From positions 330,088,001 to 330,152,000 of the forward strand of contig OZ024743.1 of the NCBI GenBank assembly GCA_964016885.1: DNA of 64,000 bases, written 5' to 3'. The number at the start of each line of letters is the position of its first letter. Within the stretch, counting starts at the first letter, position 1. The translations under genes and the position numbers were made by a program. This document shows positions 8,975 to 64,000 of the stretch, in pieces. Origin of the DNA: Eledone cirrhosa (Eukaryota). Below the pieces are notes generated by a model. The model searched no databases. It had not been told where the DNA came from and worked only from the letters and a program-made list of their open reading frames with translations.

Positions 8975-9813
8975 GTATATATATATATATATATATATAG
9001 GAACAAGTAAGACCCCGACGGCTGAGCTCAAGCCGTTTCGACGGCTAATTCTGTACTCATTATTAGCCGTCGGGGTCTTACTTGTTCCTATTACCCACTC
9101 TACTACCCAAAGTATTGAGTACTTTGGTGCGTTATGGTCCACCTGGTTCCTTACCACATTTCCTTCGTTATATATATATTTAGAAACACACAGATGCATG
9201 CGGACACACACATATATACATGAATGCATCCGCACCCAACTGTGAGTTAAGGGTGCCAACTTCACCGATGTTGCTCAATGAATGACTGGGACAGACCAAT
9301 TCAGTTTGAACCAGACTGAACCAGTATCAGAGTTAAAAATACATTATGAAGGGAGAAGAAACATTTAGATATAATTAGTAATAAAATGTATCATACCTAA
9401 ACTGTTCCTAAATTCCTCGACTACGTAGTTTCGTGGCATAAACAAAAACAATATATCAAAGATATAGAGTCCTTGCGAGGTCTGCCGACTTATCAAGAGG
9501 ATACCTCATTTTACTAGTCTCAAGAACGCGTCTACACGACGTGAGAAAGAATCCCAAAAGGCGGAGGGGGAGATAGTCACGCGATATAACGGTCGAGAAA
9601 CAGAGCTAAGCCTCTTATAACCACGAAGAAAATACCACGGAGGTGGAGGGGGTATTCATATCGAGGCCGTAGAAGAGGTAGTGAAGAAGGCGAGAAGTAT
9701 GAGTAATGGAAGCTTTCCAGTTGTCCCCACACTTCAAAGATTGCTCGACCAGAGGGAGTTATTAATATATTTAGAAACACACAGATGCATGCGGACACAC
9801 ACATATATTACCT

Positions 9814-9883
<70 letters not shown>

Positions 9884-10004
9884 TAAAAAATGAAGAGCTG
9901 TGTTGTTGCATTTAAGTTTAATAAATGAAGAATTAGAAATAGAAGTTAGGAATATCCGTCATCAGTTGTCTACTAGCCATCATAGGTATTTCTTCGCATT
10001 ACAC

Positions 10005-10606: not shown

Positions 10607-10797
10607 TTTATCCCGGGTTCAATCGGGGGTAACCACAGTAAGTAAGGTATTCAATACATAGCAGAGTATAAATATTTAATATAGAAATGTCTTCTACAGG
10701 ACTAGAAATGTTTCATTCAGGAAAAATCATCAGAAAGCCCTGATGATTTCTCTCGAATGAAACAGTTCTAGTACTGTAGAAGCCATTTCTATAATAA
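10606..10797. mobile_element. PLE pLTR fold-back with hammerhead core (CUGAUGA at 10740)
   Basis: Homologous to 50298-50489, with inverted arms ~10675-10797 and TA flanks. Confidence 0.7.
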
Positions 10798-11019
10798 AAA
10801 AAAAAAAATATATATATATATATATATATCCAAAATTAAGATAAATCAAAGTGAATTTAATCTAAATCAAAATTATGGGTGTCATGCCAGACAGGCATGC
10901 GCCATATCACCTGTAAAATAACCTCAAAGATTCTAATGAATACACACTTGTAAAAATTATCCCCTGTGATATGTTTATTTATATGTTAATCAATTTCTAG
11001 TTGTTATATATATATATAT

Positions 11020-11221
11020 AGGAACAAGTAAGACCCCGACGGCTGAGCTCAAGCCGTTTCGACGGCTAATTCTGGACTAATTCTAGTCCAGAATTAGCCG
11101 TCGAAACGGCTTGAGCTCAGTCGTCGGGGTCTTACTTGTTCCTATTACCCACTCTACTACCCTAAGTATTGAGTACTTTGGTGTGTTATGGTCCACCTGG
11201 TTCCTTACCACATTTCCTTCG

Positions 11222-17189: not shown

Positions 17190-19225
17190 ATAACTATTCA
17201 CAGCTCTCACCAACTATTTTCTCAACGCCAATTTGTCCTGCCATGCCCGCGATCTTTTCTTCTCAGCCAGTTTGACCGCTCTGAGGAAGAATGACGCAGG
17301 TATCCGCCCCATCACAGCGGGCAACGTCTTCCGACGACTTGCAAGTCAGTCAAATATGATTTAAGCGAGGCACTAAGCCCTGTTCAGCTCGGAGTGAGAG
17401 ACAAGTGTGGATGTAAGTTGGCAGCTCATGCGGGCAGATCATTTATAGATCACACGCCTCCTTCGTCACCCCTGCTCCTTCGGAAGCTGAACATGAGAAA
17501 CGCTTTCAACAGCATTTGGCGGGATCACGTCTTAGAAACATGTCTCAGACGAGCCCCCTCAATGTTCTTTCATGTTCACCTCTCGTACAGAAGACTCAAC
17601 ACACTCATGGCCGCTGACAACAAGGTTACTTCCCATACGGGTGTCCAGCAAGGAGATCCACTCCGCGCGCTCCTCTTGCAGTGGCAGTCGACGACATTGC
17701 CAGTTCTGCACGAACGCTCTTAAATGTCTGGTACCTGAACGACGTGACTCTGGATGGCTCGGCTGAGTCGGTAGTTGAGGATCTTCGGTGAATCATCCCA
17801 ACTCTAAAGCTCCTCGAACTCGAGATCAACTGATCAGAATCCGAGGTGATAAACGTTAGCTACGTAGAGGCTGAATTTCACGACGCCGTAATCAGCATCC
17901 ATCCCGTCTTGTTCGGGGCTTGTACGCTGTACAAAACATATCTGCAATGTTAATTTCCACAGCGCCGGATGGCAACAAGCGAAGCTCCCAGTGAAGTTCG
18001 GTGGCCTCGGGTCAGATCTGGTACTGGCGGCCCATCTCTGCTTAATTTTCTCCAGTTGCACTCTCATCAACGAGGTCCCCAGCAAAACGGCCGAACCTGA
18101 CGTGGCCCTAGAACTGGAGCTGGCTCTGGCTGATTGGACCGGTGAAGTCCTCTCCGTCCCCCATTATATAAATGCCCAACGTAACTGGGACAACATTAAT
18201 TGCTGATCGTCCTTCAAGCGGATCGAGTCTGGCTTGGACCTATACCGCTTCGCCTGCATCCATATCTGCTTAGCAGCCAAACAGCGGTGCGTGATTCAAT
18301 TCGGTGCCCTCCTCATCAACCAGTATCTTTCTTGATGACGAGTGCACTCGCATCGGAGTAGTTCAACGCCTCGGCCTACGTGTGTGTGAGCCACACAAAT
18401 GCCGTGGGGCTGTCATCGTTGAGTTTGACCTGCACCGACTATCATGCCACCAGAGCGCAGACCGGTTCCCCCGACATGCCGCTCTCAACGATATCTTGAG
18501 ACGGAGCCTGGATGCGGCCGGCTTCCAATCACAACTCGAGCCAGAAGGTCTCGACTGCGGAGACGGCAAGCTCCCTGGCGTAATTACCCTCTTCCTATTC
18601 GAAGGAGGTAAATAACTCATTTGGGACGCGACATGCTGTGACACGTTCTCTGCCTCGAACTTAGTCGCTTTGGCCACAAATCCCGGTACCGTGGCTCGCA
18701 GTGGAGAGGACAGTAAGACAAGCAAATACCGGGGCTTGTCTGGCAGTTTTCTTTTTGCACTGGTCACCGTTGAAGCCTCAACTGTCCACGGACTTCGAAC
18801 AGCCGAGCTCGTTCATAAAATCATAACGTCAGCAGCCTGTCTGAAGGAGCCCTGCGAGGTGGGTGGCTGTTTCAGCGGGTTTCACTGGGCATTGTCCGCA
18901 GAAATGCCTTTGCAGTTTAATCCGGAGGATGCTGCCGAAACACTGCCTCGCCCTAGACATAGACCCTGTCACCTTCTCCCCTTTCCTCTCTCTTTTTTTC
19001 TGTAGCCTAATACTCCTTACCCTTTCCCTATAGTCTTTGCTCTTTCCTTCCTTTACTTTTCATTTATATATTCCTTTCATTTACTTTCCACTACAGCCTC
19101 ATCTGTCCATTTTTACCCCTTCCTCCTTTTTGCATTACTTAATATTATTTTTATTTGTTTTTAATATTTTTTAAATTATAGTTGACATAAAATTTTTTAA
19201 AAAACTTTCAAAATGAAAATATAAA
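17190..19225 (+). mobile_element. Decayed CRE-clade non-LTR retrotransposon (RT plus restriction-like endonuclease)
   Basis: GIRPITAGNVFRRLA, PVQLGV, MRNAFNSI.R, GVQQGDPL, WYLNDVT, LPVKFGGLG, CCHC-like HKC..H.LSC, RHAALND, LIWDATC, KTSKY. Confidence 0.85.
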
Positions 19226-30935: not shown

Positions 30936-30957
30936 TATATATATATATATATATATA

Positions 30958-33840
30958 TATGTATTAAAATATAGAGAAAAATACTGCAAGTAGCACATGG
31001 TAACATGTAATAAAATAAGTCCCTCATCAGTGATTTGCCGAAGATCATAGATATTTCATTGCATTAAAAATCATATATCTCACTTCGGTGCAATAATAAC
31101 CAAAATAAGTTATTAGGACAATTAAAACGCGTAAAGCGAGTGAGACAGGAGAACAACAGAAAATATAGCATACCGTAGGGGAGAAACAAGCTTCAAAAAT
31201 TATTCTGTTTAGCATAAGCTAGGTGAATATATGAGCGCTTAGAGAATAGTACCAACACGAACGAAGGCTATTGAGCAGAGAGAGAAAAAATAGCGTTCGT
31301 GAGTGCAGGATGAAATGAAGAGAAGAGGGAGAAAAACAGTGAGTGAGTGAAAGTGTGAGGAAGAGTTAACGGACAAGACAGAGGGGGAGAAACAGAGAGA
31401 ATGGGGGAACAGTAAGAGAGAAAAAAACACAGAATCGCAGTGGTAAATATATGTATTAAAATATAGAGAAAAATACTGCAGGTAGCACATGGTAACATGT
31501 AATAAAATAAGTCCCTCATCAGTGATTTGCCGAAGATCATAGATATTTCATTGCATTAAAAATCATATATCTCACTTCGGTGCAATAATAACCAAAATAA
31601 GTTATTAGGACAATTAAAACACGTAAAGCGAGTGAGACAGGAGAACAACAGAAAATATAGCATACCGTAGGGGAGAAACAAGCTTCAAAAATTATTCTGT
31701 TTAGCATAAGCTAGGTGAATATATGAGCGCTTAGAGAATAGTACCAACACGAACGAAGGCTATTGAGCAGAGAGAGAAAAAATAGCGTTCGTGAGTGCAG
31801 GATGAAATGAAGAGAAGAGGGAGAAAAACAGTGAGTGAGTGAAAGTGTGAGGAAGAGTTAACGGACAAGACAGAGGGGGAGAAACAGAGAGAATGGGGGA
31901 ACAGTAAGAGAGAGAGAAAAAAACACAGAATTGCAGTGGTAAATATATGTATTAAAATATAGAGAAAAATACTGCAGGTAGCACATGGTAACATGTAATA
32001 AAATAAGTCCCTCATCAGTGATTTGCCGAAGATCATAGATATTTCATTGCATTAAAAATCATATATCTCACTTCGGTGCAATAATAACCAAAATAAGTTA
32101 TTAGGACAATTAAAACGCGTAAAGCGAGTGAGACAGGAGAACAACAGAAAATATAGCATACCGTAGGGGAGAAACAAGCTTCAAAAATTATTCTGTTTAG
32201 CATAAGCTAGGTGAATATATGAGCGCTTAGAGAATAGTACCAACACGAACGAAGGCTATTGAGCAGAGAGAGAAAAAATAGCGTTCGTGAGTGCAGGATG
32301 AAATGAAGAGAAGAGGGAGAAAAACAGTGAGTGAGTGAAAGTGTGAGGAAGAGTTAACGGACAAGACAGAGGGGGAGAAACAGAGAGAATGGGGGAACAG
32401 TAAGAGAGAGAGAAAAAACACAGAATCGCAGTGGTAAATATATGTATTAAAATATAGAGAAAAATACTGCAGGTAGCACATGGTAACATGTAATAAAATA
32501 AGTCCCTCATCAGTGATTTGCCGAAGATCATAGATATTTCATTGCATTAAAAATCATATATCTCACTTCGGTGCAATAATAACCAAAATAAGTTATTAGG
32601 ACAATTAAAACGCGTAAAGCGGGTGAGACAGGAGAACAACAGAAAATATAGCATACCGTAGGGGAGAAACAAGCTTCAAAAATTATTCTGTTTAGCATAA
32701 GCTAGGTGAATATATGAGCGCTTAGAGAATAGTACCAACACGAACGAAGGCTATTGAGCAGAGAGAGAAAAAATAGCGTTCGTGAGTGCAGGATGAAATG
32801 AAGAGAAGAGGGAGAAAAACAGTGAGTGAGTGAAAGTGTGAGGAAGAGTTAACGGACAAGACAGAGGGGGAGAAACAGACAGAATGGGGGAACAGTAAGA
32901 GAGAGAGAAAAAAAACACAGAATCGCAGTGGTAAATATATGTATTAAAATATAGAGAAAAATACTGCAGGTAGCACATGGTAACATGTAATAAAATAAGT
33001 CCCTCATCAGTGATTTGCCGAAGATCATAGATATTTCATTGCATTAAAAATCATATATCTCACTTCGGTGCAATAATAACCAAAATAAGTTATTAGGACA
33101 ATTAAAACGCGTAAAGCGAGTGAGACAGGAGAACAACAGAAAATATAGCATACCGTAGGGGAGAAACAAGCTTCAAAAATTATTCTGTTTAGCATAAGCT
33201 AGGTGAATATATGAGCTCTTAGAGAATAGTACCAACACGAACGAAGGCTATTGAGCAGAGAGAGAAAAAATAGCGTTCGTGAGTGCAGGATGAAATGAAG
33301 AGAAGAGGGAGAAAAACAGTGAGTGAGTGAAAGTGTGAGGAAGAGTTAACGGACAAGACAGAGGGGGAGAAACAGAGAGAATGGGGGAACAGTAAGAGAG
33401 AGAGAAAAAAACACAGAATCGCAGTGGTAAATATATGTATTAAAATATAGAGAAAAATACTGCAGGTAGCACATGGTAACATGTAATAAAATAAGTCCCT
33501 CATCAGTGATTTGCCGAAGATCATAGATATTTCATTGCATTAAAAATCATATATCTCACTTCGGTGCAATAATAACCAAAATAAGTTATTAGGACAATTA
33601 AAACGCGTAAAGCGAGTGAGACAGGGGAACAACAGAAAATATAGCATACCGTAGGGGAGAAACAAGCTTCAAAAATTATTCTGTTTAGCATAAGCTAGGT
33701 GAATATATGAGCGCTTAGAGAATAGTACCAACACGAACGAAGGCTATTGAGCAGAGAGAGAAAAAATAGCGTTCGTGAGTGCAGGATGAAATGAAGAGAA
33801 GAGGGAGAAAAACAGTGAGTGAGTGAAAGTGTGAGGAAGA
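30958..33840 (-). mobile_element. Tandem array of ~5.8 near-identical 492-497 bp non-coding units, retrozyme-like, one permuted hammerhead per unit, flanked by (TA)n
   Basis: TCATCAG (CUGAUGA on minus) recurs at 31024, 31516, 32012, 32507, 33004, 33500. Units differ mainly in (AG)n/A-run length. The minus strand is pyrimidine-rich with no credible ORF. TA repeats lie on both sides. Confidence 0.85.
31019..31119 (-). ncRNA. Permuted, pseudoknotted, kink-turn-containing hammerhead-like ribozyme (first of six copies)
   Basis: Minus strand reads GUCC..UUGCA CCGAAG U GA GAUAU A/UGAUU UUUAA UGCAA U GAA AUAUC UAU GA U CUUCGG CA AAUCA CUGAUGA G GGAC. Predicted cleavage between 31074 and 31073. Confidence 0.75.
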
Positions 33841-35956: not shown

Positions 35957-36515
35957 GGGATAACAACTTATCGTTATACGTAATCCAGTTAGAGGTGGTG
36001 AGTGCTCTGTGTCGTGGATAGTTTTAACGTACAGCTTTTTTTGACTCAACAAGATGCTTCCATAGTTATGCAGAGAGTTCGCTGTAATTTCTATGCAGGT
36101 TATACTTGGATTAATAATAGTTAAAGAATGAAGATTAACTTGGTTGGCTGTACAATAAGGGGCTTTATTTAAAGTACTGACAATTGTTTCGTTGATCAGG
36201 TGTGTCTAGAGTTCGTTAATCGCTTGAGGTTGCGTCAATCGATCTCCAATACATTATTCACCTCTGGTCAACACATCAGAGTATGTAGATATGAAAATAG
36301 TTCACTCGAGGCAAGACTTATATAGAAAAATACGCTATTTTTCTCTATAAGTCTTGCCTCGAGTGAATTACTTTCATATCTACGTACTCTGATGTGTTGA
36401 CCAGAGGTGAATAATGTATTGGAGATCGATTGACGCAACCTCAAGCGATTAGCGAACTCTAGACCCACATGATCAACGAAACAATTGTCAGTACTTTAAA
36501 TAAAGCCCTTATTGC
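35957..36515 (-). mobile_element. PLE pLTR (minus) with inverted partial copy, giving two hammerheads (36174-36284 minus, 36384-36494 plus)
   Basis: ~36152-36330 and ~36335-36515 are inverted repeats, and the region is homologous to 58810-59150. GUACU-CUGAUGU-GUUGA..UCAAC-GAAAC-AAUU-GUC-AGUAC. Confidence 0.85.
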
Positions 36516-39170
36516 AGTGTGCACCTTTTCGAGAGCACCGTGATCATCTGTCCCGTTAGCGGCCATCAGCACGATGTAATCTGCGTAGGCCAGGTCCGTC
36601 ACCACGACCCCTCTCCCGATTTCTACGCTCAGGTAATCCCGCAGCGCTGTGTTGAGAGTGTAGTCAATGGCGTAGTTAAAGAGAGTTGGCGATAGCGCAC
36701 ACCCCTGCCGAACACCGATCCCAACATCGAACGACTCCGTCTCCCCACCATAGATCCTCAATCGAGCCCGAGTCAACCGGTAGTAGCCTTGTATGAGATG
36801 AAGCAGCTTCACTGGGATGCCGTCCGCCTCCATTATACGCCATAGGGCTTCCCGATCACCCGAGTCGAAAGCAGCTGCAAAGTCGATGAAGCAGAGGACG
36901 GTAGGCTCTTGATGTACCCACCGTTGTTCCAGGACACGCCGGAGAAGGAAGATTTGATCAACGCACCCCCTCCCCGGAGGGAAGCCGCCCTGAGAAGGAC
37001 GGGTACGGACATCAACAGAAGAATTGCGAAGGTTTTGGCAGCAACGTCAATTAAACTGATACCCCTGTAGTTGGAACACAGTTTCCTGTCGCCTTTTTTG
37101 AAGAAGGATAGGAGAGTTGCCTCGCTCCAGTCACCAGGGAACCGCTCCGTCGCCCACACCGAGGAGAAGACTCGATGGAGCCAAGCTGCGAAGAAATCAG
37201 GCTCGGCCTTGTAGACCTCAGCTGGAACGCCATCTTCGCCCGGCGCCTTGTTGTTCCGGAGATGTGTCAGGACACTACGTACCTTCTCGACCGTTGGAGG
37301 GGTAGTGCTGCACCCGTATTCTTCTCCGGAAGGCTGCACGTAGGTTGGCGTGGATGGTGGAGGGTGGTTGAGCAGCTCGGAAAAATGGTCCCGCCATCGG
37401 ACTAGCCGGTCATTAAAATTGGTAATAACCGCCCCGTTCCGATCACAGATCGTCTCGCTGATACGCGTACTGCTTCGGCTGGCCCACTTCACCAGTTGGT
37501 AGAGCTTGCGCGAGTCACCACAGGCTGCTTCCCTCTCTGTCTGCCCCGCAAATTCGCGCCAGTCTGCATTCCGATCGGCCCTAATAGCCCGAGCTGTACA
37601 ACGTCGGAGATCTCGAAGATTGGGTGCACCCTCGAGTTGGGCCACTCTCGCCCTCTCCGCGAGTTCAAGAGTGCCGCTGGAGATCCAGTCCCGATGGCGT
37701 CTTCGGGTCGACCGAGATGTTCCCTGGCCACCTCAACCGTCGCCGCTCTGAGCGCGTTCCACTCCTGCTCCGGTTGCTGTTCCACTTCGTTACTCAGCAT
37801 TTGGAATCGGTTTCGCAACTCTAGCCGGAAAGCATTTCCAGCATCGAGCTTGAGTCGCGAGATGTCGATCCTTTTCTGGCCGTTGGGAGGTGGTTTCGCC
37901 CGCAGCCGCAGACGAAGGATTGCTCGAACAAGAGTATGGTCTGACTCATGCTCACAGCCCATATCAGCCCCCCGATACGCACGCGAGTCCATCACTGAGC
38001 TGGCCCACCAAGATCTGACCAGGATGTAGTCAATTTGATTGGCCGTTCTTCCGTCATTGGCTTTCCACGTGACGAGATGACGCCAAGGATGTAGGAACCG
38101 GGTGTTGATGACGATAAGACGATTGGCATCCGCGAAGGACACGAGCCGTTCACCATTGTCACAGCGTGCGCCTAGGGTGAAGCGTCCTAGTATATGCCGT
38201 GTTGTATCATCAGCCGCGCATTCCAGTCCCCAGCGACAATGAGAACATCACTGGAGGGGACGCCAGCCACGGTTATTTGGAGATGGGCATAGAACTGCGT
38301 CTTGTCCGCCTCGTCCGCATTGAGTGTGGGAGCGTAGACGGCAATTACGCTGACGTTGGAGATTTGACCCTTCAATCGAACCAGCGCGATTCGGTGTGAG
38401 ATCGGCTGCCACGCCAGCAGAGCCGCTTGCGTGTCGAGGCTGAGCGCTACAGCGACCCCGTGAAGGCCACTGTTGTCACTCACGCCACTATGGTATACGT
38501 GGTAGGAGATGTCCTCGCCAGGAACTTTGATCGGAAGATTACCAACATCGGGGAGCGAACTTCTGATAGGCAAGCGACACTAACGCAGTACCTGTGCAGA
38601 GCCTTCATTGTAAGTGCCTGGACACCGTCGTCACGAAGTGTTCGGACGTTCCAGCACGCCACCCTCAATTCCTTCCTTCGTCTGAAGAGCGGGACTACTG
38701 CGGGAGTAGTCTGTAGAGCCATAGCGGTAGGAGCGCTGTTACTTTGCATTGCGTTCGTAGCAGGAAGGCAATTCGTATTCATAGTTCTTATTTGTAGGAT
38801 TCATGGAAGAAGTGTCATGGGAGTAGTGAATTCACAAGCGGTCCCCCAAAAAACCCGAACGAGGGGAAAAAACGTCCTGTTTGCCGCAGATTCTCCACAG
38901 ACGCAGGGACAGAAACGACCCGAAGCCGCCGGTTACCGGAACATACACCTCTTGGATTTTCACCAGAGCCCCTTTTGCCGGGTTGCGACCCTAATACCGC
39001 TGGGTGCCAGACCAATCTGCCTTGGGTAGCCTTACCAGGAACCGAAGTTCCCGACGGCATAACCCTGACCCGTTGCCACTGCCCTGCCACGTTGAGGAGG
39101 GGTTGGACTTTAGCTCACACCTATGCAGGTTTAGCTGGCCTCCTCCAAGGTATATCTCACCTTTGGTGAT
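36515..39170 (-). mobile_element. RTE-clade LINE: 5' UTR, APE endonuclease and RT to just past the YADD-like motif; frameshifted, 3' end missing
   Basis: ACWNVRTL, LSEVR, YAPT, GDWNA, NQIDYILV, SDHTLV, KAPGEDG, NYRGISL, GVRQGCALSPTLFN, LAYADY. Confidence 0.95.
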
Positions 39171-44984: not shown

Positions 44985-46900
44985 ATACCTATTGTACAAC
45001 ATATGTACACAATGTAGTGAATTTATTGTACTACAGATGTACATAATGTAGTGAATTTATTGTACTACAGATGTACATAATGTAGTGAATTTATTGTACT
45101 ACAGATGTACATAATGTAGTGAATTTATTGTACTACAGATGTACATAATGTAGTGAATTTATTGTACTACAGATGTACATAATGTAGTGAATTTATGGTA
45201 CTACAGATGTACATAATGTAGTGAATTTATTGTACTACAGATGTACATAATGTAGTGAATTTATTGTACTACAGATGTACACAATGTAGTGAATTTATTT
45301 CACTACAGATGTACACAATGTAGCGTTTTATTGTACAACAGTTGTACACAATGTAGTGAATTTATTGTACTACAGATGTTCACAATGTAGGGAATTTATT
45401 GTACTACAGATGTACACAATGTAGTGAATTTATTGTACAACAGATGTACATAATGTAGTGAATTTATTGTACAACAGTTGTACACAATGTAGGGAATTTA
45501 TTGTACACCAGATGTACAAAATGTAGTGAATTTATTGTACAACAGTTGTTCACAATGTAGTGAATTTATTGTACAACAGATGTACACAATGTAGTGAATT
45601 TATTGTACACCAGATGTACACAATGTAGTGAATTTATTGTACTACAGATGTACACAATGTAGTGAATTTATTGTACAACAGTTGTATACAATGTAGTGAA
45701 TTTATTGTACAACAGTTGTACACAATGTAGTGAACTTATTGCACACCAGATGTTCACAATGAAGTGAATTTATTGTACTACAGATGTACACAATGTAGTG
45801 AATTTATTGTACAACAGATGTACATAATGTAGTGAATTTATTGTACAACAGATGTACACAATGTAGTGAATTTATTGTACAACTGTTGTTCACAATGTAG
45901 TGAATTTATTGTACAACAGATGTACACAATGTAGTGAATTTACTGTACAACAGATGTACACAATGTAGTGAATTTATTGCACACCAGATGTACACAATGT
46001 AGTGAACTTATTGTACTACAGATGTACACAATGTAGGGAATTTATTGTACACCAGATGTACAAAATGTAGTGAATTTATTGTACAACAGTTGTTCACAAT
46101 GTAGTGAATTTATTGTACAACAGATGTACACAATGTAGTGAATTTATTGTACACCAGATGTACGCAATGTAGTGAATTTATTGTACTACAGATGTACACA
46201 ATGTAGTGAATTTATTGTACAACAGTTGTACACAATGTATTGAATATATTGTACAACAGTTGTTCACAATGTAGTGAATTTATTGTACTACAGATACACA
46301 CAATGTAGTGAATTGATTGTACTACAGATGTACACAATGTAGTGAATTGATTGTACTACAGATACACTCAATGTAGTGAGGCACAGAATTCTTGATAGAG
46401 TGCGTAGTTTGGAGATCAGAGAGTCACTGCTACTTCTCCAAATTGAGAGTTCACAGCTCCGATACTATAGACATGTGGTTAGAATGTCCCTGAAGAAATC
46501 ACTGGACAGATTTTATGGGCAAAACGAACCGGCAGGAGACGCAGAGGTTGACCCCGAGCAAGATGGTTGGATAACATCCATGAACTTGGCTGGTCTCGCT
46601 TGGGGATCGAGCCGGATAAATTGGAAACGGTTGCTTCTGACAGGAGCTGCTGGAAGGAGTATTTGATGACTCTGTCCCCACGACCCACTCAAGAATAAGT
46701 AGGGGAAGAAGAAGACGAAGGGATGTACACAGTGGTGAATTTATTGTTCAAAAGATGTATACAATGATGAATTTATTGTTCAACAGATGTACACAATGGT
46801 GAATTAATTGTTTAACAGATGTACACAATGGTGATTTTGTAAAACGTTTGTATATAAAGTAGAGAATATATTGTTTAACAAATGTACACAACATAATACA
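44985..46900. repeat. 34-bp minisatellite (~40 copies) interrupted by an RTE 3' fragment at 46376-46720
   Basis: Unit AATGTAGTGAATTTATTGTACTACAGATGTACAC. Confidence 0.95.
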
Positions 46901-47236
46901 TGTATTGTTTAATAAATATATACATTTTAGCGAATATATCATTAGATAGGTGTATAAAATTGAATATATACTGGAGTTTACAATTGTTATAGTAGACAAA
47001 TGCTACCGAATTATACAAAGATGAAAGTAATTTAGAAAATTTAGGATTAACATAATAATTAGGAAGAGAGAAATAGTGAAAATTTGCGAAAGAAAAAAAA
47101 ATCACATACACATACACATAAACAAATACACACTAACGTGCACACACACATATATGTATATATATATTTCCTTCTTCCTCTCTTTCTGCTGCTTAAACCA
47201 TTTTGTTTGTTTACCCTAGCGTCCCCTTTATTTACG

Positions 47237-47339
47237 TGTCCCAACGACTTTTTTTAGCCGTCGGTCGCACTAATCTGAGGTATATGGCCTTTAATGCGAC
47301 GAAATGCCTACGACGGCTGGATGGCCACTGATGAGGACA
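47237..47339 (+). ncRNA. Permuted kink-turn hammerhead-like ribozyme, copy 1
   Basis: UCGCA CUAAUC U GA GGUAU A/UGGCC UUUAA UGCGA C GAA AUGCC UAC GA C GGCUGG AU GGCCA CUGAUGA G GACA. Predicted cut after 47284. Confidence 0.75.
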
Positions 47340-47593
47340 AACTTTTTCATATGTAACCCATTTGCAGCGCCGCAGCTCCATTATTATCATATTTACACAT
47401 ATATTTTTTCCTCCGCTGCCACCAGTCTGTTTCGTTCTTTGTGTCTTTACCCTTTCTAGCAGTCTCTCTCTGTTAGCCTCTTCCTCACCTTTCACTCACT
47501 CACTCTCTGTCACTACCTCTCCTCCTCCCCTTTCTTCCAGTTTGACCTGTCCACAATCCTTTTCTCGCGGGCACTTGGCCAAGCCGGTATGAA

Positions 47594-47638
<45 letters not shown>

Positions 47639-47876
47639 GCGACTTCACAGAACTTATGTTTACCGAATTCGCAGACCAGACCCCTTCTTCCTCCCGTTAG
47701 ACCTGTGCGAAATTCCTTCCTTGCTCACATTTCAACCAGGTTTGATGGTCTTTATTCTCTCGTTCATGATTCCACCGAATTTATATTCATAGAAATCTGG
47801 GACTTGTTTCCTTCTTCCTCTCTTTCTGCTGCTTAAACCATTTTGTTTGTTTACCCTAGCGTCCCCTTTATTTACG

Positions 47877-47980
47877 TGTCCCAACGACTTTTTTCTAGCC
47901 GTTGCTCGCACCAACCTGAGGTATATGGCCTTTAATGCGACGAAATGCCTACGACGGTTGGATGGCCACTGATGAGGACA
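47877..47980 (+). ncRNA. Permuted kink-turn hammerhead-like ribozyme, copy 2
   Basis: Same layout with outer helix CCAACC/GGUUGG. Predicted cut after 47925. Confidence 0.75.
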
Positions 47981-48022
47981 AACTTTTTCATATGTAACCC
48001 ATTTGCAGCGCCGCAGCTCCAT

Positions 48023-48101
<79 letters not shown>

Positions 48102-48411
48102 ATTTATATATATATATCATAATTTATAAAGCTCAGTGTATGGTCATGCTCCTTCGTTATAGAAATCTACGATATAGAATTTCTTCAATTGAAATTTACA
48201 ATTCAGTATTCGAAATAGCTTCGATTGCGTCTTGACGCAGATAATTTTTTCAATTTCACCCACAATTACGCCAAAAATAGATAAAACTCAATATTTTACG
48301 ATTTTTCTCTCTCATTTAAACTACTGACCTCTTTCTACTACCATTCAAAATCTATACAACTTCATACTTTCTGCTACTTTCTCTTTCCAAGCTTGATGGT
48401 GATACTGTCCG

Positions 48412-50297: not shown

Positions 50298-50486
50298 GTT
50301 ATTCCGGGTTGAATCGGAGGTAACCACAGTAAGTAAGGTACTCAATACATTGCAGAGTATAAAAGTTTTAATATAGATGAGATTCTACAGGACTAGAACT
50401 GTTTCATTCTTTAGAAATCATCAGGATTCCTGATGATTTCTAATGAATGAAACAGTTCTAGTCCTGTAGAATCTCATCTATATTAA

Positions 50487-50489
<3 letters not shown>
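50298..50489. mobile_element. PLE pLTR fold-back with hammerhead at 50425-50473 (+); same family at 10606-10797, 34164-34592, ~7185-7290
   Basis: GAUUC-CUGAUGA-UUUCUAAUGAAU-GAAAC-AG..CU-GUA-GAAUC. Inverted arms span 50366-50487. Shared GGTAACCACA..AAGGTA(C/T)TCAATAC segment. Confidence 0.75.
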
Positions 50490-50530
<41 letters not shown>

Positions 50531-54740: not shown

Positions 54741-55119
54741 TTTCAAGATTTTTTATATGAAATCGTGTGTTATTGTTATACTTGGGGAGGGTCATATTGT
54801 TGTAATAATATTGCCACTCACTGTTTTGGTTGGTTTTCGCTTCTGTATCTTTTATATCTCCATAGTTAATTCCTCCGGCAATCAATATTTATCATTGATT
54901 GATCAACGGTTAAAAATACTGATATAAATATATATATATATATAGTCTATCAAAGTTCTTTCGTTGCATCTGTGGTACTATTATGTTGCTGGATGAATTA
55001 ACTATGGAGATATAAAAGATACAGAAGCGAAAACCACCAAACAATGACTGTGTTCTGTTATTATTTCTAGCAATATTATTATAACAATATGACCCTCCCC
55101 AAGTATAACAATATATATA

Positions 55120-55590
55120 TGCAGTTGCAGGAAGCCGGATGAATGCCCATTGCAGGGTAAATGTAACACAAAATCTGTCGTTTATGAGGCTAAGATAACG
55201 CCAGTAATCAACAACCAGCCAGCCAGGAGTGAGCGATATGTCGGTATGACCCAGGACAGGTTTAAAACCAGATTTTACTCACATGTCGCTTCTTTTAAGC
55301 ACTCCGATAAACGAACATCAACGGCCCTCGCAAGTAAGGTATGGGATCTCAAGGATAGTAACATCCCGTACTCTATTGATTGGTCTATATTAGACCATTC
55401 GAGGGAGTACCAAAGGGGCACAAAGAATTGTTCTTTGTGTACCACAGAAAAGTATAGGATTTTGCTAAACTTGAGAGCCACTTCCGCTTGCCTTAACTCA
55501 AAGACTGAGATCTTCAGATGCTGTCCTCATCTGAAATCGCATCTGATCTGTAACTGGATTGACACTCCTATGAGAAATCAACCGCCTTGA
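55120..55590 (+). CDS. GIY-YIG endonuclease domain of a 5'-truncated Penelope-like element (Cys-rich linker, Neptune-like)
   Basis: CSCRKPDECPLQGKC..SVVYEA..RYVGMTQDRFKTRFYSH..SF..TALA..IDWSIL..CSLCTTEK..LNSKTEIFRCCPH. Confidence 0.9.
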   Translation, partial: CSCRKPDECPLQGKCNTKSVVYEAKITPVINNQPARSERYVGMTQDRFKTRFYSHVASFKHSDKRTSTALASKVWDLKDSNIPYSIDWSILDHSREYQRGTKNCSLCTTEKYRILLNLRATSACLNSKTEIFRCCPHLKSHLICNWIDTPMRNQPP

Positions 55591-55836
55591 ACTCCTTCTC
55601 TGCTCTTTACTTTTGCTACGGTTTTTATTTTGCTGACTCTACCTTCTGTACTCTTGTATATTTACAAAATTTTTTTCTCCCTTACCTCCCCTTATATTTT
55701 ACCTTCTCTTATGCCCCCCCCCCCCCATATATTATTTTTGTTTTGCCGTTCACATACCTATGTGTATGTGTATGTATTTTTGTGTGTATATATATATGTA
55801 TATATATATATATATGTATACATGTATGTATATATT

Positions 55837-55936
<100 letters not shown>

Positions 55937-56011
55937 CGTGTGTGTATGTGTGTATATAATTGTATATGTGTGTGTGTATATGTATGTATATGTGGATGAA
56001 CCAGGCTTTTT

Positions 56012-56069
56012 TTCATTCTGAAGATTGAAGGAAACTTTTTTTGCTTTTAAGAAACCTCTGGTGAATGGA
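56012..56069 (+). ncRNA. Type I hammerhead in the pLTR of the 55120 PLE, probably inactive (GUG triplet)
   Basis: UUCAUU-CUGAAGA-UUGAAGG..CUUUUAA-GAAAC-CUCUG-GUG-AAUGGA. Confidence 0.7.
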
Positions 56070-56207
56070 TTAATTGCCTTATGTTGCTTTATTACTTTAC
56101 TACTATATATACGTTTATGTAAGGTTCATTTGTCTTATCTAATACTGAACTTTACACATACACACATGTATATGTGTGTGTGTGTATGCATGTGTGTATG
56201 TGTACGT

Positions 56208-56271
<64 letters not shown>

Positions 56272-56466
56272 ATGTGTGCGTGTGTATTTATTTATTTTTA
56301 TGTATGTGTGGGTGTGTGTGTGTGTGTGTGTGTTTGTATTTGGTTGTGCGTGCTTTTGATATATACGTATTTGCATGTGTATAATTGTTTAGCTATGTAT
56401 GTATATGTGTGTTTACGTATATGTATGTGTGTGTGTGTGTGTGTGCGTTTATATTTTTATATTTTG

Positions 56467-56586
<120 letters not shown>

Positions 56587-56993
56587 ATTACATATACATG
56601 TGTGTCTTTATATTATATACGTGTGCGTGTTTGTATATGTATGTGTATGTACGTGTTTATGTATTTGTATATGTATATTTATGTGTGAGAGTGTGTGTAT
56701 GTGTTTACTATTTCGTACATATGTATATGTGCTTTTGTGTGTATTACTTACCACGCGTGTCTGTCCTGTTAGCTGGGGCATGTATCGGTGTCAAACATTT
56801 TTTAATATATATTTATATATTTTTTTCTTATATTTATTTGCGTGTGTGAATATGTAGAGGAGTGCATTCATGTATGTGTATGTATGTACGTTGTATGTTT
56901 GTGTGAATGTATGTATGTGTATATATATGTGTGTGTGTATGGCTATGTTTGTGTATGTGTATGCTTGTACACACACATGTGTGTGTGTGTGTA

Positions 56994-57032
<39 letters not shown>

Positions 57033-57166
57033 GTAGATAAATCTACCAAGAGTTTACGGTAGTGTCCAATCCGTATGAAGAACTCAATGTATTCCGGATA
57101 TCATGGAAAGAAGAGATGTAATGAAAATCCAATTTCGGTGAAAGATAAACGGTATACAGAGTCAAG

Positions 57167-57569
57167 ATAAAATATTAAACAAATAATGAACAAACAATTC
57201 CTTATATTAAACAAAAAAAGTTCACTATTTAACGATCGTTTCTAGGGTATATATGTGTTATAATTGGTATGCATATTTAACAGATCTATGTACAAAATTA
57301 TACAAAATTATACAAATTATCAAGATTAAATATACATACCTAACTCATATATACGCCGTCTTCATTATTTCTGAAGACGGCGTATATATGAGTTAGGTAT
57401 GTATATTTAATCTTGATAATTTGTATAATTTTGTATAATTTTGTACATAGATCTGTTAAATATGCATACCAATTATAACACATATATACCCTAGAAACGA
57501 TCGTTAAATAGTGAACTTTTTTTGTTTAATATAAGGAATTGTTTGTTCATTATTTGTTTAATATTTTAT
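57167..57569. mobile_element. PLE pLTR fragment with ~198-bp apparently perfect inverted copy (fold-back)
   Basis: 57167-57364 is the reverse complement of 57372-57569, with a 7-nt loop. Confidence 0.85.
57361..57515 (+). ncRNA. Type I hammerhead ribozyme, same family as 30746
   Basis: UUCAUUAUUU-CUGAAGA-long stem II-GAAAC-GAUC-GUU-AAAUAGUGAA. Confidence 0.8.
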
Positions 57570-57763
57570 ATATATATATATAAATTAATATGTATGTGAT
57601 GAAACACAGATACCAACACATCTGTATATATATTGCAAAAGAAAAATATATATACAGATGTGTTGGTATCTGTGTTTCATCACATACATATTAATTTATA
57701 CACTGCTCAGGGGGCATTTTCCTCCTTCGAGCTGATTCCATTGTAAAAGAATTCATTACCTTA

Positions 57764-57817
<54 letters not shown>

Positions 57818-58164
57818 TATATATGTGTGTGTGTATGTGTGTGTGTGCGTGTGTGTGTGTATGTGTGTGTGTGTGTGTGTGTATGTATGAATGTATGTAT
57901 GTGTATATGTGTGTATATATGTGTATGTCTGTGTAGGTGTACGTTTTATATATGTATATGTGTATATGTATATGTGTATGCGTACATTTATATATATGTA
58001 TATATGTATGTGTGTGTAAGTATGCTTTTGTGTTTTTTTTGTGTGTGTGTTTGCATGTGTAGTTTTATTTTATTTTTCCTTTCCTTCTCCCTTTTCCAGC
58101 CTCACTTTCATATAGATTGCATTTTTGTTTTTAAAATCCAAATTCAATAAACAAACCAGGATTT

Positions 58165-58222
58165 TTCATTCTGAGGATTGAAAGCAAAACCTTTTGCTTT
58201 TAAGAAACCACTGGTAAATGGA
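58165..58222 (+). ncRNA. Type I hammerhead, second copy of the 56012 pLTR family, intact GUA triplet
   Basis: UUCAUU-CUGAGGA-UUGAAAGCAAAA CC UUUUGCUUUUAA-GAAAC-CACUG-GUA-AAUGGA. Confidence 0.8.
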
Positions 58223-61789: not shown

Positions 61790-61990
61790 TTCATCATCAT
61801 CAATGCTATCACAGTCGAACATTCCTGTCAGCCACTCCACAATTCACGATTTTCCATTGCATCTGGCAACTTCTCCATACCGAGGTTTCTATCGTCCGAG
61901 AGTTGATCAATAAATGCTCAAGCAGATTTTCATCCACTGTGTCTCCTGTGAGTTGGTTCCCACAATAGTAACTTGTATATAACTTCCTGA
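61790..61990 (-). mobile_element. RTE LINE 3' end with (GAT)n tail, continuous with the 39-bp satellite
   Basis: LLLWEPTHRRHSG*KSA*AFIDQLSDDRNLGMEKLPDAMENRELW then GATGATGATG. Confidence 0.75.
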
Positions 61991-64000
61991 GTTGGTTCCC
62001 ACAACAGTAACCTGTGCATAACTTCCTGAGTTGGTTCCCACAACAGTAACTTGTATATAACTTCCTGAGTTGGTTCCCACAACAGTAACTTGTATATAAC
62101 TTCCTGAGTTGGTTCCCACAACAGTAACTTGTGTATAACTTCCTGAGTTGGTTCCCACAATAGTAACTTGTATATAACTTCCTGAGTTGGTTCCCACAAC
62201 AGTAACTTGTGTATAACTTCCTGAGTTGGTACCCACAATAGTAACTTGTGTATAACTTCCTGAGTTGGTTCCCACAATAGTAACTTGTATATAACTTCCT
62301 GAGTTGGTTCCCACAACAGTAACTTGTATATAACCTACTGAGTTGGTTCCCACAATAGTAACTTGTATATAACCTTTTGAGTTGGTTCCCACAATAGTAA
62401 CTTGTGTATAACTTCCTGAGTTGGTTCCCACAATAGTAACTTGTATATAACTTACTGAGTTGGTTCCCACAACAGTAACTTGTATATAACCTACTGAGTT
62501 GGTTCCCACAATAGTAACTTGTATATAACTTCCTGAGTTGGTTCCCACAACAGTAACTTGTATATAACCTACTGAGTTGGTTCCCACAATAGTAACTTGT
62601 ATATAACTTCCTGAGTTGGTTCCCACAATAGTAACTTGTGTATAACTTCCTGAGTTGGTTCCCACAATAGTAACTTGTATATAACTTACTGAGTTGGTTC
62701 CCACAACAGTAACTTGTATATAACCTACTGAGTTGGTTCCCACAATAGTAACTTGTATATAACTTCCTGAGTTGGTTCCCACAACAGTAACTTGTATATA
62801 ATCTACTGAGTTGGTTCCCACAATAGTAACTTGTATATAACCTGCTGAGTTGGTTCCCACAATAGTAACTTGTATATAACCTGCTGAGTTGGTTCCCACA
62901 ATAGTAACTTGTGTATAACTTCCTGAGTTGGTTCCCACAATAGTAACTTGTATATAACTTCCTGAGTTGGTTCCCACAACAGTAACTTGTGTATAACTTC
63001 CTGAGTTGGTTCCCACAACAGTAACTTGTGTATAACTTCCTGAGTTGGTTCCCACAATAGTAACTTGTATATAACTTCCTGAGTTGGTTCCCACAACGGT
63101 AACTTGTGTATAACTTCCTGAGTTGGTACCCACAATAGTAACTTGTGTATAACTTCCTGAGTTGGTTCCCACAATAGTAACTTGTATATAACTTCCTGAG
63201 TTGGTTCCCACAACAGTAACTTGTATATAACCTACTGAGTTGGTTCCCACAATAGTAACTTGTATATAACTTGCTGAGTTGGTTCCCACAATAGTAACTT
63301 GTGTATAACTTCCTGAGTTGGTTTCCACAATAGTAACTTGTATATAACTTCCTGAGTTGGTTCCCACAACAGTAACTTGTATATAACCTACTGAGTTGGT
63401 TCCCACAATAGTAACTTGTATATAACTTCCTGAGTTGGTTCCCACAACAGTAACTTGTATATAACCACCTGAGTTCGTTCCCACAATAGTAACTTGTATA
63501 TAACTTACTGAGTTGGTTCCCACAATAGTAACTTGTATATAACCTACTGAGTTGGTTCCCACAATAGTAACTTGTGTATAACTTCCTGAGTTGGTTCCCA
63601 CAATAGTAACTTGTATATAACTTCCTGAGTTGGTTCCCACAACAGTAACTTGTGTATAACTTCCTGAGTTGGTTCCCACAACAGTAACTTGTATATAACC
63701 TACTGAGTTGGTTCCCACAATAGTAACTTGTATATAACTTCCTGAGTTGGTTCCCACAACAGTAACTTGTATATAACCTACTGAGTTGGTTCCCACAATA
63801 GTAACTTGTATATAACCTACTGAGTTGGTTCCCACAATAGTAACTTGTATATAACCTACTGAGTTGGGTCCCACAATAGTAACTTGTGTATAACTTCCTG
63901 AGTTGGTTCCCACAATAGTAACTTGTATATAACTTCCTAAGTTGGTTCCCACAACAGTAACTTGTGTATAACTTCCTGAGTTGGTTCCCACAACAGTAAC
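61950..64000. repeat. 39-bp minisatellite (>50 copies, runs off the window)
   Basis: Unit GAGTTGGTTCCCACAA(T/C)AGTAACTTGT(A/G)TATAACTTCCT. Confidence 0.97.

Follow-up and report, generated by a model that had tools for sequence, protein, structure and literature searches.

The window analysed here, 64,000 nt of Eledone cirrhosa DNA, contained an insertion of a non-coding tandem element at 47167..48027 (+), which was truncated at its 5' end and comprised 1.34 units. The insertion begins with a partial first unit, the '5' terminal repeat' (47167..47386, +), and ends with a matching 3' repeat (47807..48027, +). The initial annotation had described slightly different direct repeats of about 220 bp, two predicted cuts 641 nt apart and TA on both flanks, and all of this was confirmed: the repeats are separated by one indel and five substitutions, the cuts are predicted at 47284/5 and 47925/6 with CUGAUGA at 47328 and 47969, and (TA)n runs lie on each side of the element, a shorter one at ~47150-47166 on the 5' side and the target or flank at 48026..48117 on the 3' side. 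The left boundary had been taken for an LTR-like terminal-repeat end; it proved to be a random truncation point, one of the many 5' ends scattered among 91 arms of the family. On the 3' side, the insertion ends at one of the family's fixed 3' points with a Penelope-type tail (47992..48027, +), which is found on one arm only of head-to-head copies.

The predicted cut-to-cut monomer RNA (47285..47925, +) would be 641 nt long, C/U-rich and weakly folded. Its fold had an MFE of -119.7 kcal/mol and was modestly better than those of 20 shuffles (z -1.9), with long unpaired C/U tracts. The designation as a 641-nt family had to be revised to a median of 622 nt (31 units, range 610-658); the local unit reaches 641 nt because its (CT)19 tract (47597..47634, +) is longer. 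As contigs, the element was deeply covered in four sequencing runs of unrecorded kind. All five substitutions between the repeats fell inside the 5' ribozyme copy (47237-47339), and this variant is private to the locus, with one match genome-wide. The five substitutions cluster within 47260-47317, and three of them make inverted repeats between the hairpin H/B and k-turn/B' strands perfect, as from template-switch palindrome correction.

Other repeats were found in the same window. Minisatellites of 34 bp (41 copies, 44990-46379) and 39 bp (more than 52 copies, 61949-64000) were present, and a short element with a long internal palindrome at 11020-11200 and 9000-9180 recurs beside many loci (L282, L305). 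From their motifs, the minus-strand frames at 36459-39000 presumably belong to a broken RTE-like LINE with APE endonuclease and RT, and we take fragments of an RT and a restriction-like endonuclease at 17295-19005 to be R2/NeSL-like.

A degenerate motif pattern matched the genome of 3.0 Gb 7,976 times (3850 + 4126), while the reversed pattern gave no match (0 + 0); the exact 34-nt family core was present in 720 copies genome-wide. A genome similarity search, in which 40 of 2,591 candidates were scored, gave 74 matches, the full-length ones at about 90-98% identity. According to the tandem spacings, units measure about 495 nt, 530 nt (in two sequence types) or 622 nt, so that there are at least four unit families with their own conserved lengths, and the diverse, high-copy group that had been suggested is indeed present as several homologous families. 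Across the families the units are non-coding, measure 495-660 nt, have a GC content of 42% and carry one ribozyme each. The longest array arm measured 2581 nt, about four units, which supplied the longer multimers that the annotation had proposed to look for. The 495-nt sister family with the same ribozyme motif was verified in the window as a 5.8-unit array with six motif copies (30955..33840, -), and a short, 5'-truncated copy of a third family, containing blocks G and C only, lies between TA runs at 9900..10003 (-). A more divergent family with a different stem I and a CUGACGA core was seen at L289 (C1:28794919), and at L297 a further motif variant directly adjoins a third-family copy within one TA run.

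The absence of similarity to the 495-nt family outside the ribozyme and the 3' motif, as first described, did not hold. A body block at 47462..47504 (+) is common to both families, with 86% identity over 44 nt and a local score of 58 compared with a maximum of 34 in 300 shuffles, and an alignment of seven units, drawn from four families, was roughly collinear. Homology of the families extends along the body, so that conservation is not confined to the ribozyme, which is only its strongest part; of the original argument, selection on the RNA structure is supported by covariation, and the confinement of conservation to that structure is not. Divergence within arrays (3.4 per 172 nt) and between loci (4.0) was nearly equal, and thus does not favour a circle over a multimer.

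Insertion pattern and Penelope-like elements

Forty isolated family loci on C1 were inspected for their ends. Thirty-six end inside the locus, and 35 of these 36 stop, as judged by eye, at three fixed points 15-70 nt 3' of CUGAUGA, with counts of 11, 14 and 10; nearly all run into (TA)n. Head-to-head arrangements were found at 12 of 33 loci; each of these 12 has a short arm that ends before the tail of about 40 nt, and 11 of the longer arms reach the tail end. The insertions thus display 5' truncation, fixed 3' ends, partial tandems and a bias towards (TA)n targets. In the account of Penelope-like elements (PLEs) given in PMC8557442, 5' truncation, partial tandems, an inverted 5' copy, a one-sided tail of 30-40 bp and a (TA)n bias are described. 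Non-autonomous Penelope-type mobilisation, as initially proposed, was therefore upheld, whereas a turn of a circle and a pLTR-bounded layout could not be kept as alternatives, because partial tandems are what pLTRs consist of, and a 1.3-unit copy is the product expected when a circular or multimeric RNA is inserted in the Penelope manner. We regard the presence of a real, high-copy, PLE-mobilised non-coding element as very likely.

Young PLEs abound in this genome. The GIY-YIG fragment at 55093-55590 (+) had 58,351 candidates genome-wide, the best 150 of which were at 98-100% identity with ORFs of about 715 aa. The 715-aa ORF had no Pfam match and no PDB match; it was assigned to PLEs because of its motifs and its ESM Atlas neighbours, which carry the HTH_animal and GIY-YIG families. 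This fragment region, 54760-58200, is the 3' part of a very young and very abundant PLE with a short inverted arm at ~54760-54930. In its long 3' region, CUGA at 56018 and at 58171 marks two motifs resembling type I hammerheads, and a tail of ~65 nt distinguishes one end of this PLE from the other. A second autonomous PLE family (L054:780-1330, L266, L274, L114) has a C-terminal GIY-YIG and a tail of ~55-60 nt, and its 3' repeat includes a canonical type I hammerhead; a motif like that of this second family was also seen at window position 741 (+). Two further repeats with CUGAUGA were recorded. Short near-perfect foldbacks at 10640-10810 and 50360-50490, with CTGATGA in both arms and between TA runs, are probably head-to-head remnants of another PLE-type ribozyme repeat, and a 310-bp tandem repeat with a different CUGAUGA...GAAA motif at L086:157-1040 (-) is probably a conventional type I retrozyme family.

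The initial annotation had named one reading that would change the interpretation, namely that the motif is simply the pLTR ribozyme of an autonomous PLE. Such a PLE would be one that was not sampled, and the units of 495-660 nt would have arisen by amplification of pLTR fragments, without a monomer or circular RNA of their own. Every feature of the insertions is of PLE type, and a preprint (10.64898/2026.07.22.740005), in its treatment of origins, derives animal retrozymes from pLTRs. An RT/GIY-YIG ORF in register with the motif was found at none of 198 motif-bearing loci (some overlapping) with flanks of 1.5-3.5 kb, a screen drawn from ~8,000 motifs, and a rare autonomous carrier beyond these 198 loci is possible. 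PLE fragments upstream of the motif terminate with 3' ends and TA runs of their own; in other cases an inverted arm adjoins the 5' end of the arm. Both autonomous families with ends that were read carry ordinary type I hammerheads, and the element had no sequence match to the ends of autonomous PLEs read in this genome. Together with the conserved unit lengths of at least four families, these observations make the pLTR reading unlikely.

Hammerhead core and possible signs of cleavage

Each repeat contains a copy of the predicted ribozyme. The five private substitutions of copy 1 (47237..47339, +) affect hairpin H, the link between H and B, and helix A; the cut in this copy is predicted after 47284. 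Copy 2 (47877..47980, +) is typical of the family, with the predicted cut after 47925, and is described here from 5' to 3'. An upstream module (47877..47910, +) consists of clamp strand E (47877-81), which pairs with 47976-80, hairpin H (47882-904) and the displaced stem II strand B (47906-10), which pairs with 47936-40. The 5' strand of helix A (47911-16, +) and the non-bulged k-turn strand U-G-A (47917-19, +) follow. Block S (47920..47931, +) includes the 5' strand of stem III, U16.1 (47924), H17, which is A here (47925), and the 5' strand of stem I. Block G (47936..47949, +) includes the 3' strand of stem II, C11.1, GAAA (47942-45) and the 3' strand of stem III. The bulged k-turn strand, with a 3-nt bulge, G, A and C at 3b, and the 3' strand of helix A occupy 47950..47961 (+), and block C (47963..47980, +) contains the 3' strand of stem I, CUGAUGA (47969-75), G10.1 and clamp strand E'. 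The position names H17, U16.1, 10.1 and 11.1 follow hammerhead numbering.

The core blocks of a hammerhead are thus present in the order cleavage site, GAAA and CUGAUGA (S-G-C), at 47920-31, 47936-49 and 47963-75, respectively. The CUGANGA and GAAA of the core are present at this locus; in other copies they were partly fixed by the search pattern. Core positions outside the search anchor were counted in 120 intact copies out of 130 unique ones, after ten with broken stems I or III had been dropped, and about half of the 120 belong to the 622-nt-unit family. U16.1 was present in 120 of 120 copies, and H17 was A in 86, C in 34 and never G or U. Positions 10.1 and 11.1 formed a standard pair (G-C, G.U, U-A or A-U) in 109 copies and were unpaired in 11. 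The letters TAATGCRA (UAAUGC in the RNA) were required by the search, so their invariance is no evidence. Rfam gave no match at the gathering score over the whole window, and at E<=10 the interval 47100-48100 gave 12 weak, unrelated matches with no ribozyme among them. Readings as HDV, pistol, hairpin and twister-sister ribozymes were dropped after comparison with the consensus features of these classes. With high confidence, the motif is a selected RNA fold with a hammerhead core.

In a sister subfamily the base at the cleavage site is dimorphic, being C in 845 and A in 518 otherwise identical, intact 38-nt cores. In this subfamily, 5' ends joined to TA numbered 70 at the TA 8 nt 3' of the cut and 17 at ATA 18 nt 3' of it, compared with one at the adjoining TAT-C and four at a TA ~35 nt away on the 5' side. 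Scaling the 17 by 845/1363 gives ~10.5 expected ends against the one seen, with a Poisson p of ~3e-4 calculated by hand from patterns that cover slightly different sets of the subfamily. If the RT occasionally copied cleaved RNA, 5' ends would be expected to accumulate immediately 3' of the cut and to be rare immediately 5' of it. In 20 sister-subfamily loci with such junctions, the sequence on the far side of the TA run did not include the matching upstream part of the element. The asymmetry of 70 to 1 is an indirect sign of cleavage in the sister subfamily, which loose annealing of the AT-rich linker to (TA)n could also produce. A further 36 junctions exactly at the cut are ambiguous with the TATA microhomology of copies with A at H17.

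The family at 47167-48027 showed no clear pile-up of 5' ends at the cut, with one exact and one ambiguous end among 91 arms, a count for which the sampling pattern left out ends just 3' of the cut at 40 loci. Most copies run through the predicted cut, so that either a ligated circle or an uncleaved multimer is needed. Both observations would be expected if the fold were real and selected, and no longer or only weakly catalytic, serving as a hammerhead-derived structure (a k-turn RNP) that binds protein or recruits the RT. The absence of a canonical stem II agrees with this, as does the result given in the preprint (10.64898/2026.07.22.740005) that eight of nine predicted Xenopus retrozymes were uncleaved in vitro. 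Such a structure would not, however, be expected to keep the core, to restrict H17 to A or C and to let 10.1-11.1 covary, as catalysis requires, and the junctions of the sister subfamily point to cleavage as well; we judge loss of catalysis to be rather improbable. The RNA probably cleaves itself at the predicted site, and an intermediate that is circular is possible, with the balance tilted slightly in its favour.

Helices, stem II and a probable kink-turn

The helices were examined in an alignment of 31 copies (A1), hand-picked for diversity and all from one genome. A model of 35 pairs was 94.1% paired, with 18 pairs changed on both sides, while slid controls reached 28-42%. None of 500 shuffles reached the pairing of the model, a control that is inflated by the relatedness of the copies. 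Since the copies are related and come from a single genome, the covariation events are fewer than the cell counts suggest. Without guidance, RNAalifold recovered helix A and stem III around a 3x6 internal loop. Stems I and III were 96.8% and 96.1% paired, with four and one covarying pairs, respectively. Covarying pairs were rich in stem I, helix A (five) and hairpin H (four), and weak in helix B (one), stem III (one) and helix E (two). Helix A is a sixth helix that extends stem III beyond the internal loop. Much of the covariation that fixes the fold is supplied by the 622-nt-unit family, which is why this second family matters; it is one base shorter after CUGAUGA, so that the register of helix E differs there.

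A direct stem II between CUGAUGA and GAAA was not found in A1. Its three middle positions pair in none of the 31 rows, only its first pair forms, and overall it was 39% paired, a value that did not exceed those of slid controls. Instead, the bases that precede GAAA pair with strand B upstream, and those that follow CUGAUGA pair with strand E still further upstream, with hairpin H between them. Helices B and E were 92.9% and 85.5% paired in the 31 copies, with compensatory changes in both. A descriptor of the whole fold was passed by 93 of 112 unique matches in the genome itself and by none of 107 unique chance matches, which came from a pattern scan of at least 119 metagenome stretches and 5 viral contigs. 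An uninterrupted stem II is thought to be essential in all known hammerheads, as PMC10085705 states in its account of the motif.

The same pairing data bear on the reading that this is an ordinary type-SGC hammerhead with a non-canonical duplex as stem II, for which E, H and B would be an alternative, inactive fold. It would account for the covariation of 10.1-11.1, and two distal positions of such a duplex can pair in 20 and 28 of the 31 rows, but the unpaired middle positions and the compensatory changes in B and E argue against it, and we hold it to be improbable.

The internal loop between stem III and helix A has the layout of a kink-turn, in which a 3-nt bulge precedes a G and an A that face G and A on the other strand. 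In 120 copies, 1b was G in 117, 2b A in 118, 2n G in 113, 1n A in 117 and L2 A in all 120; 3b.3n was non-Watson-Crick, with C.U, the combination of the 622-nt-unit family, in 60 and U.U, that of sister families, in 52. The 4b-4n pair formed in 113 of 120 copies, and the flanking helices were those recovered independently by RNAalifold. The loop fits the standard kink-turn as defined in PMC4382518, here as a prediction from sequence, and the rule given there predicts that a kink-turn with 3b=C, the base present in the local copy, folds in Mg2+ alone. We consider the split stem II and the kink-turn rather likely.

A twister-like ribozyme cutting at the U/A of UAAUGC would also explain the hot spot of 5' junctions, as 70 of these lie at that dinucleotide and UAAYRC, GUYnCAA and GAGnR resemble twister blocks in the consensus of the PMC10085705 supplement. 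It is nevertheless very improbable. Inspection of A1 by eye showed that GAG does not follow the P2 partner strand, that the T2 pseudoknot lacks its letters and that 18 of the 31 rows have U, C or A next to CUGAUGA on its 3' side; moreover, nothing of the hammerhead core and stems is missing, and the invariance of UAAUGC was set by the search.

Proposed element and closest known systems

The explanation that we favour, and consider likely, is a non-autonomous, retrozyme-like retroelement that is copied by the RT/GIY-YIG of PLEs into (TA)n and carries one hammerhead of ~105 nt, in non-circular order, per unit. In this explanation, stem II would be reduced to the single 10.1-11.1 pair, stacked on helix B, the 5' strand of which lies upstream of the cut. 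E and H would span the break after CUGAUGA as a four-way junction, and the kink-turn would fold the extended stem III back, so that stems I and II would be connected at their far ends by helix A. Three struts, namely stem I, stem II and stem III-kink-A, would then run from the catalytic junction to a distal three-way junction. The result would be a cage as in type-SGC hammerheads, opened after position 10.1 rather than in the III-A strut.

Tandem or read-through transcripts would cleave themselves to unit-length RNA, the ends of which would stay paired through E, B, A and III. With the two ends held by four helices, circularisation or ligation would be favoured, as we infer. Nicked (TA)n would prime the PLE RT at AU-rich points that lie 15-70 nt beyond the 3' side of the ribozyme, and synthesis would continue for a variable length, which would give sub-unit, 1.3-unit and multi-unit copies, often with a second, inverted arm. 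A bolder version has, in our estimate, an even chance of being right as a whole. It holds that the motif is an active hammerhead with a seventh wiring, outside the six permutations thought possible, in which a four-way junction reconnects the CUGAUGA block with the stem II from which it has been separated while the kink-turn closes the cage, and that this ribozyme drives a radiation of circular-RNA retroelements in an animal genome. In some families, the kink-turn may need a host protein of the 15.5K/L7Ae type, which would make cleavage protein-gated.

The class of element, non-autonomous tandem repeats mobilised by PLEs, is already known. The order and shape in which the hammerhead parts are wired are absent from the literature searched, which suggests that such ribozymes have been overlooked in animal DNA. 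Literature searches, weak on subscription journals, returned no prior report of such a ribozyme, with type SGC appearing only in the 2023 paper, and no natural hammerhead with a four-way stem II or a k-turn; nor was a natural k-turn within stem III of any ribozyme found in these searches. Non-circular permutations of the hammerhead have so far come from environmental sequence only, and are classified on the assumption that three blocks are unbreakable. With one of these blocks broken and a k-turn in use, a high-copy example from an animal would enlarge the range of folds of the small ribozyme that has been studied best, and would explain why Rfam and published descriptors miss such elements. 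A construct of ~105 nt with natural compensatory variants is ready for assay and structure determination. Retrozyme-like parasites with a ribozyme unlike those of the sampled PLEs also bear on the question of whether retrozymes are detached pLTRs. If the proposal is true, there would be a link between genomic retrozymes and the viroid-like RNAs that yielded the SGC ribozymes, and PLEs said to lack hammerheads may carry permuted ones.

The closest known ribozyme is type SGC (HRIMA-1 and a variant; Eckert et al. 2023, PMC10085705), for which that paper gives examples from metatranscriptomes and no example from genomes of known organisms. The block order site-GAAA-CUGAUGA, the intact core, the short linker from stem I to stem II and an extra helix by the far ends of stems I and II, as described there, are shared with the motif reported here. 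In type SGC, as presented in PMC10085705, stem II pairs directly between blocks G and C and, together with an interaction strand, lies directly 3' of CUGAUGA, whereas here one such pair is present, the remaining strand lies upstream and no stem II or interaction strand occupies that place. The kink-turn, hairpin H and clamp E are additional here, and there are thousands of genomic copies in an animal. The classification set out in PMC10085705 assumes that CUGAnGA is inseparable from its stem II strand, that is, that block C cannot be broken, and the SGC RNAMotif pattern published there would miss the present motif.

Among mobile elements, the animal non-LTR retrozymes, as described by Cervera and de la Pena 2020 (PMC7229834) and in the preprint of Li, Clavereau and Pollet (10.64898/2026.07.22.740005), are similar in their non-coding tandem units with one hammerhead each, in their occurrence as monomers to multimers, in low GC, in thousands of copies and in their coexistence with PLEs. 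In these sources non-LTR retrozymes are defined by a type I hammerhead; since the element described here has the S-G-C order instead, it was filed as retrozyme-like. Retrozyme units measure 150-450 bp in PMC7229834 and 51-972 in preprint 10.64898/2026.07.22.740005, compared with 495-660 nt here, and the retrozyme circRNAs reported there are highly self-paired and were shown by northern blot, in contrast to the C/U-rich body here, which is predicted to fold weakly. PLEs and their non-autonomous derivatives, as characterised by Craig et al. 2021 (PMC8557442), share with it the 5' truncation, partial tandems, inverted 5' arm, one-sided tail of 30-40 bp, (TA)n targets and a ribozyme near the 3' end; compared with the PLEs of that study, the element has no RT/GIY-YIG ORF and its ribozyme is non-canonical.
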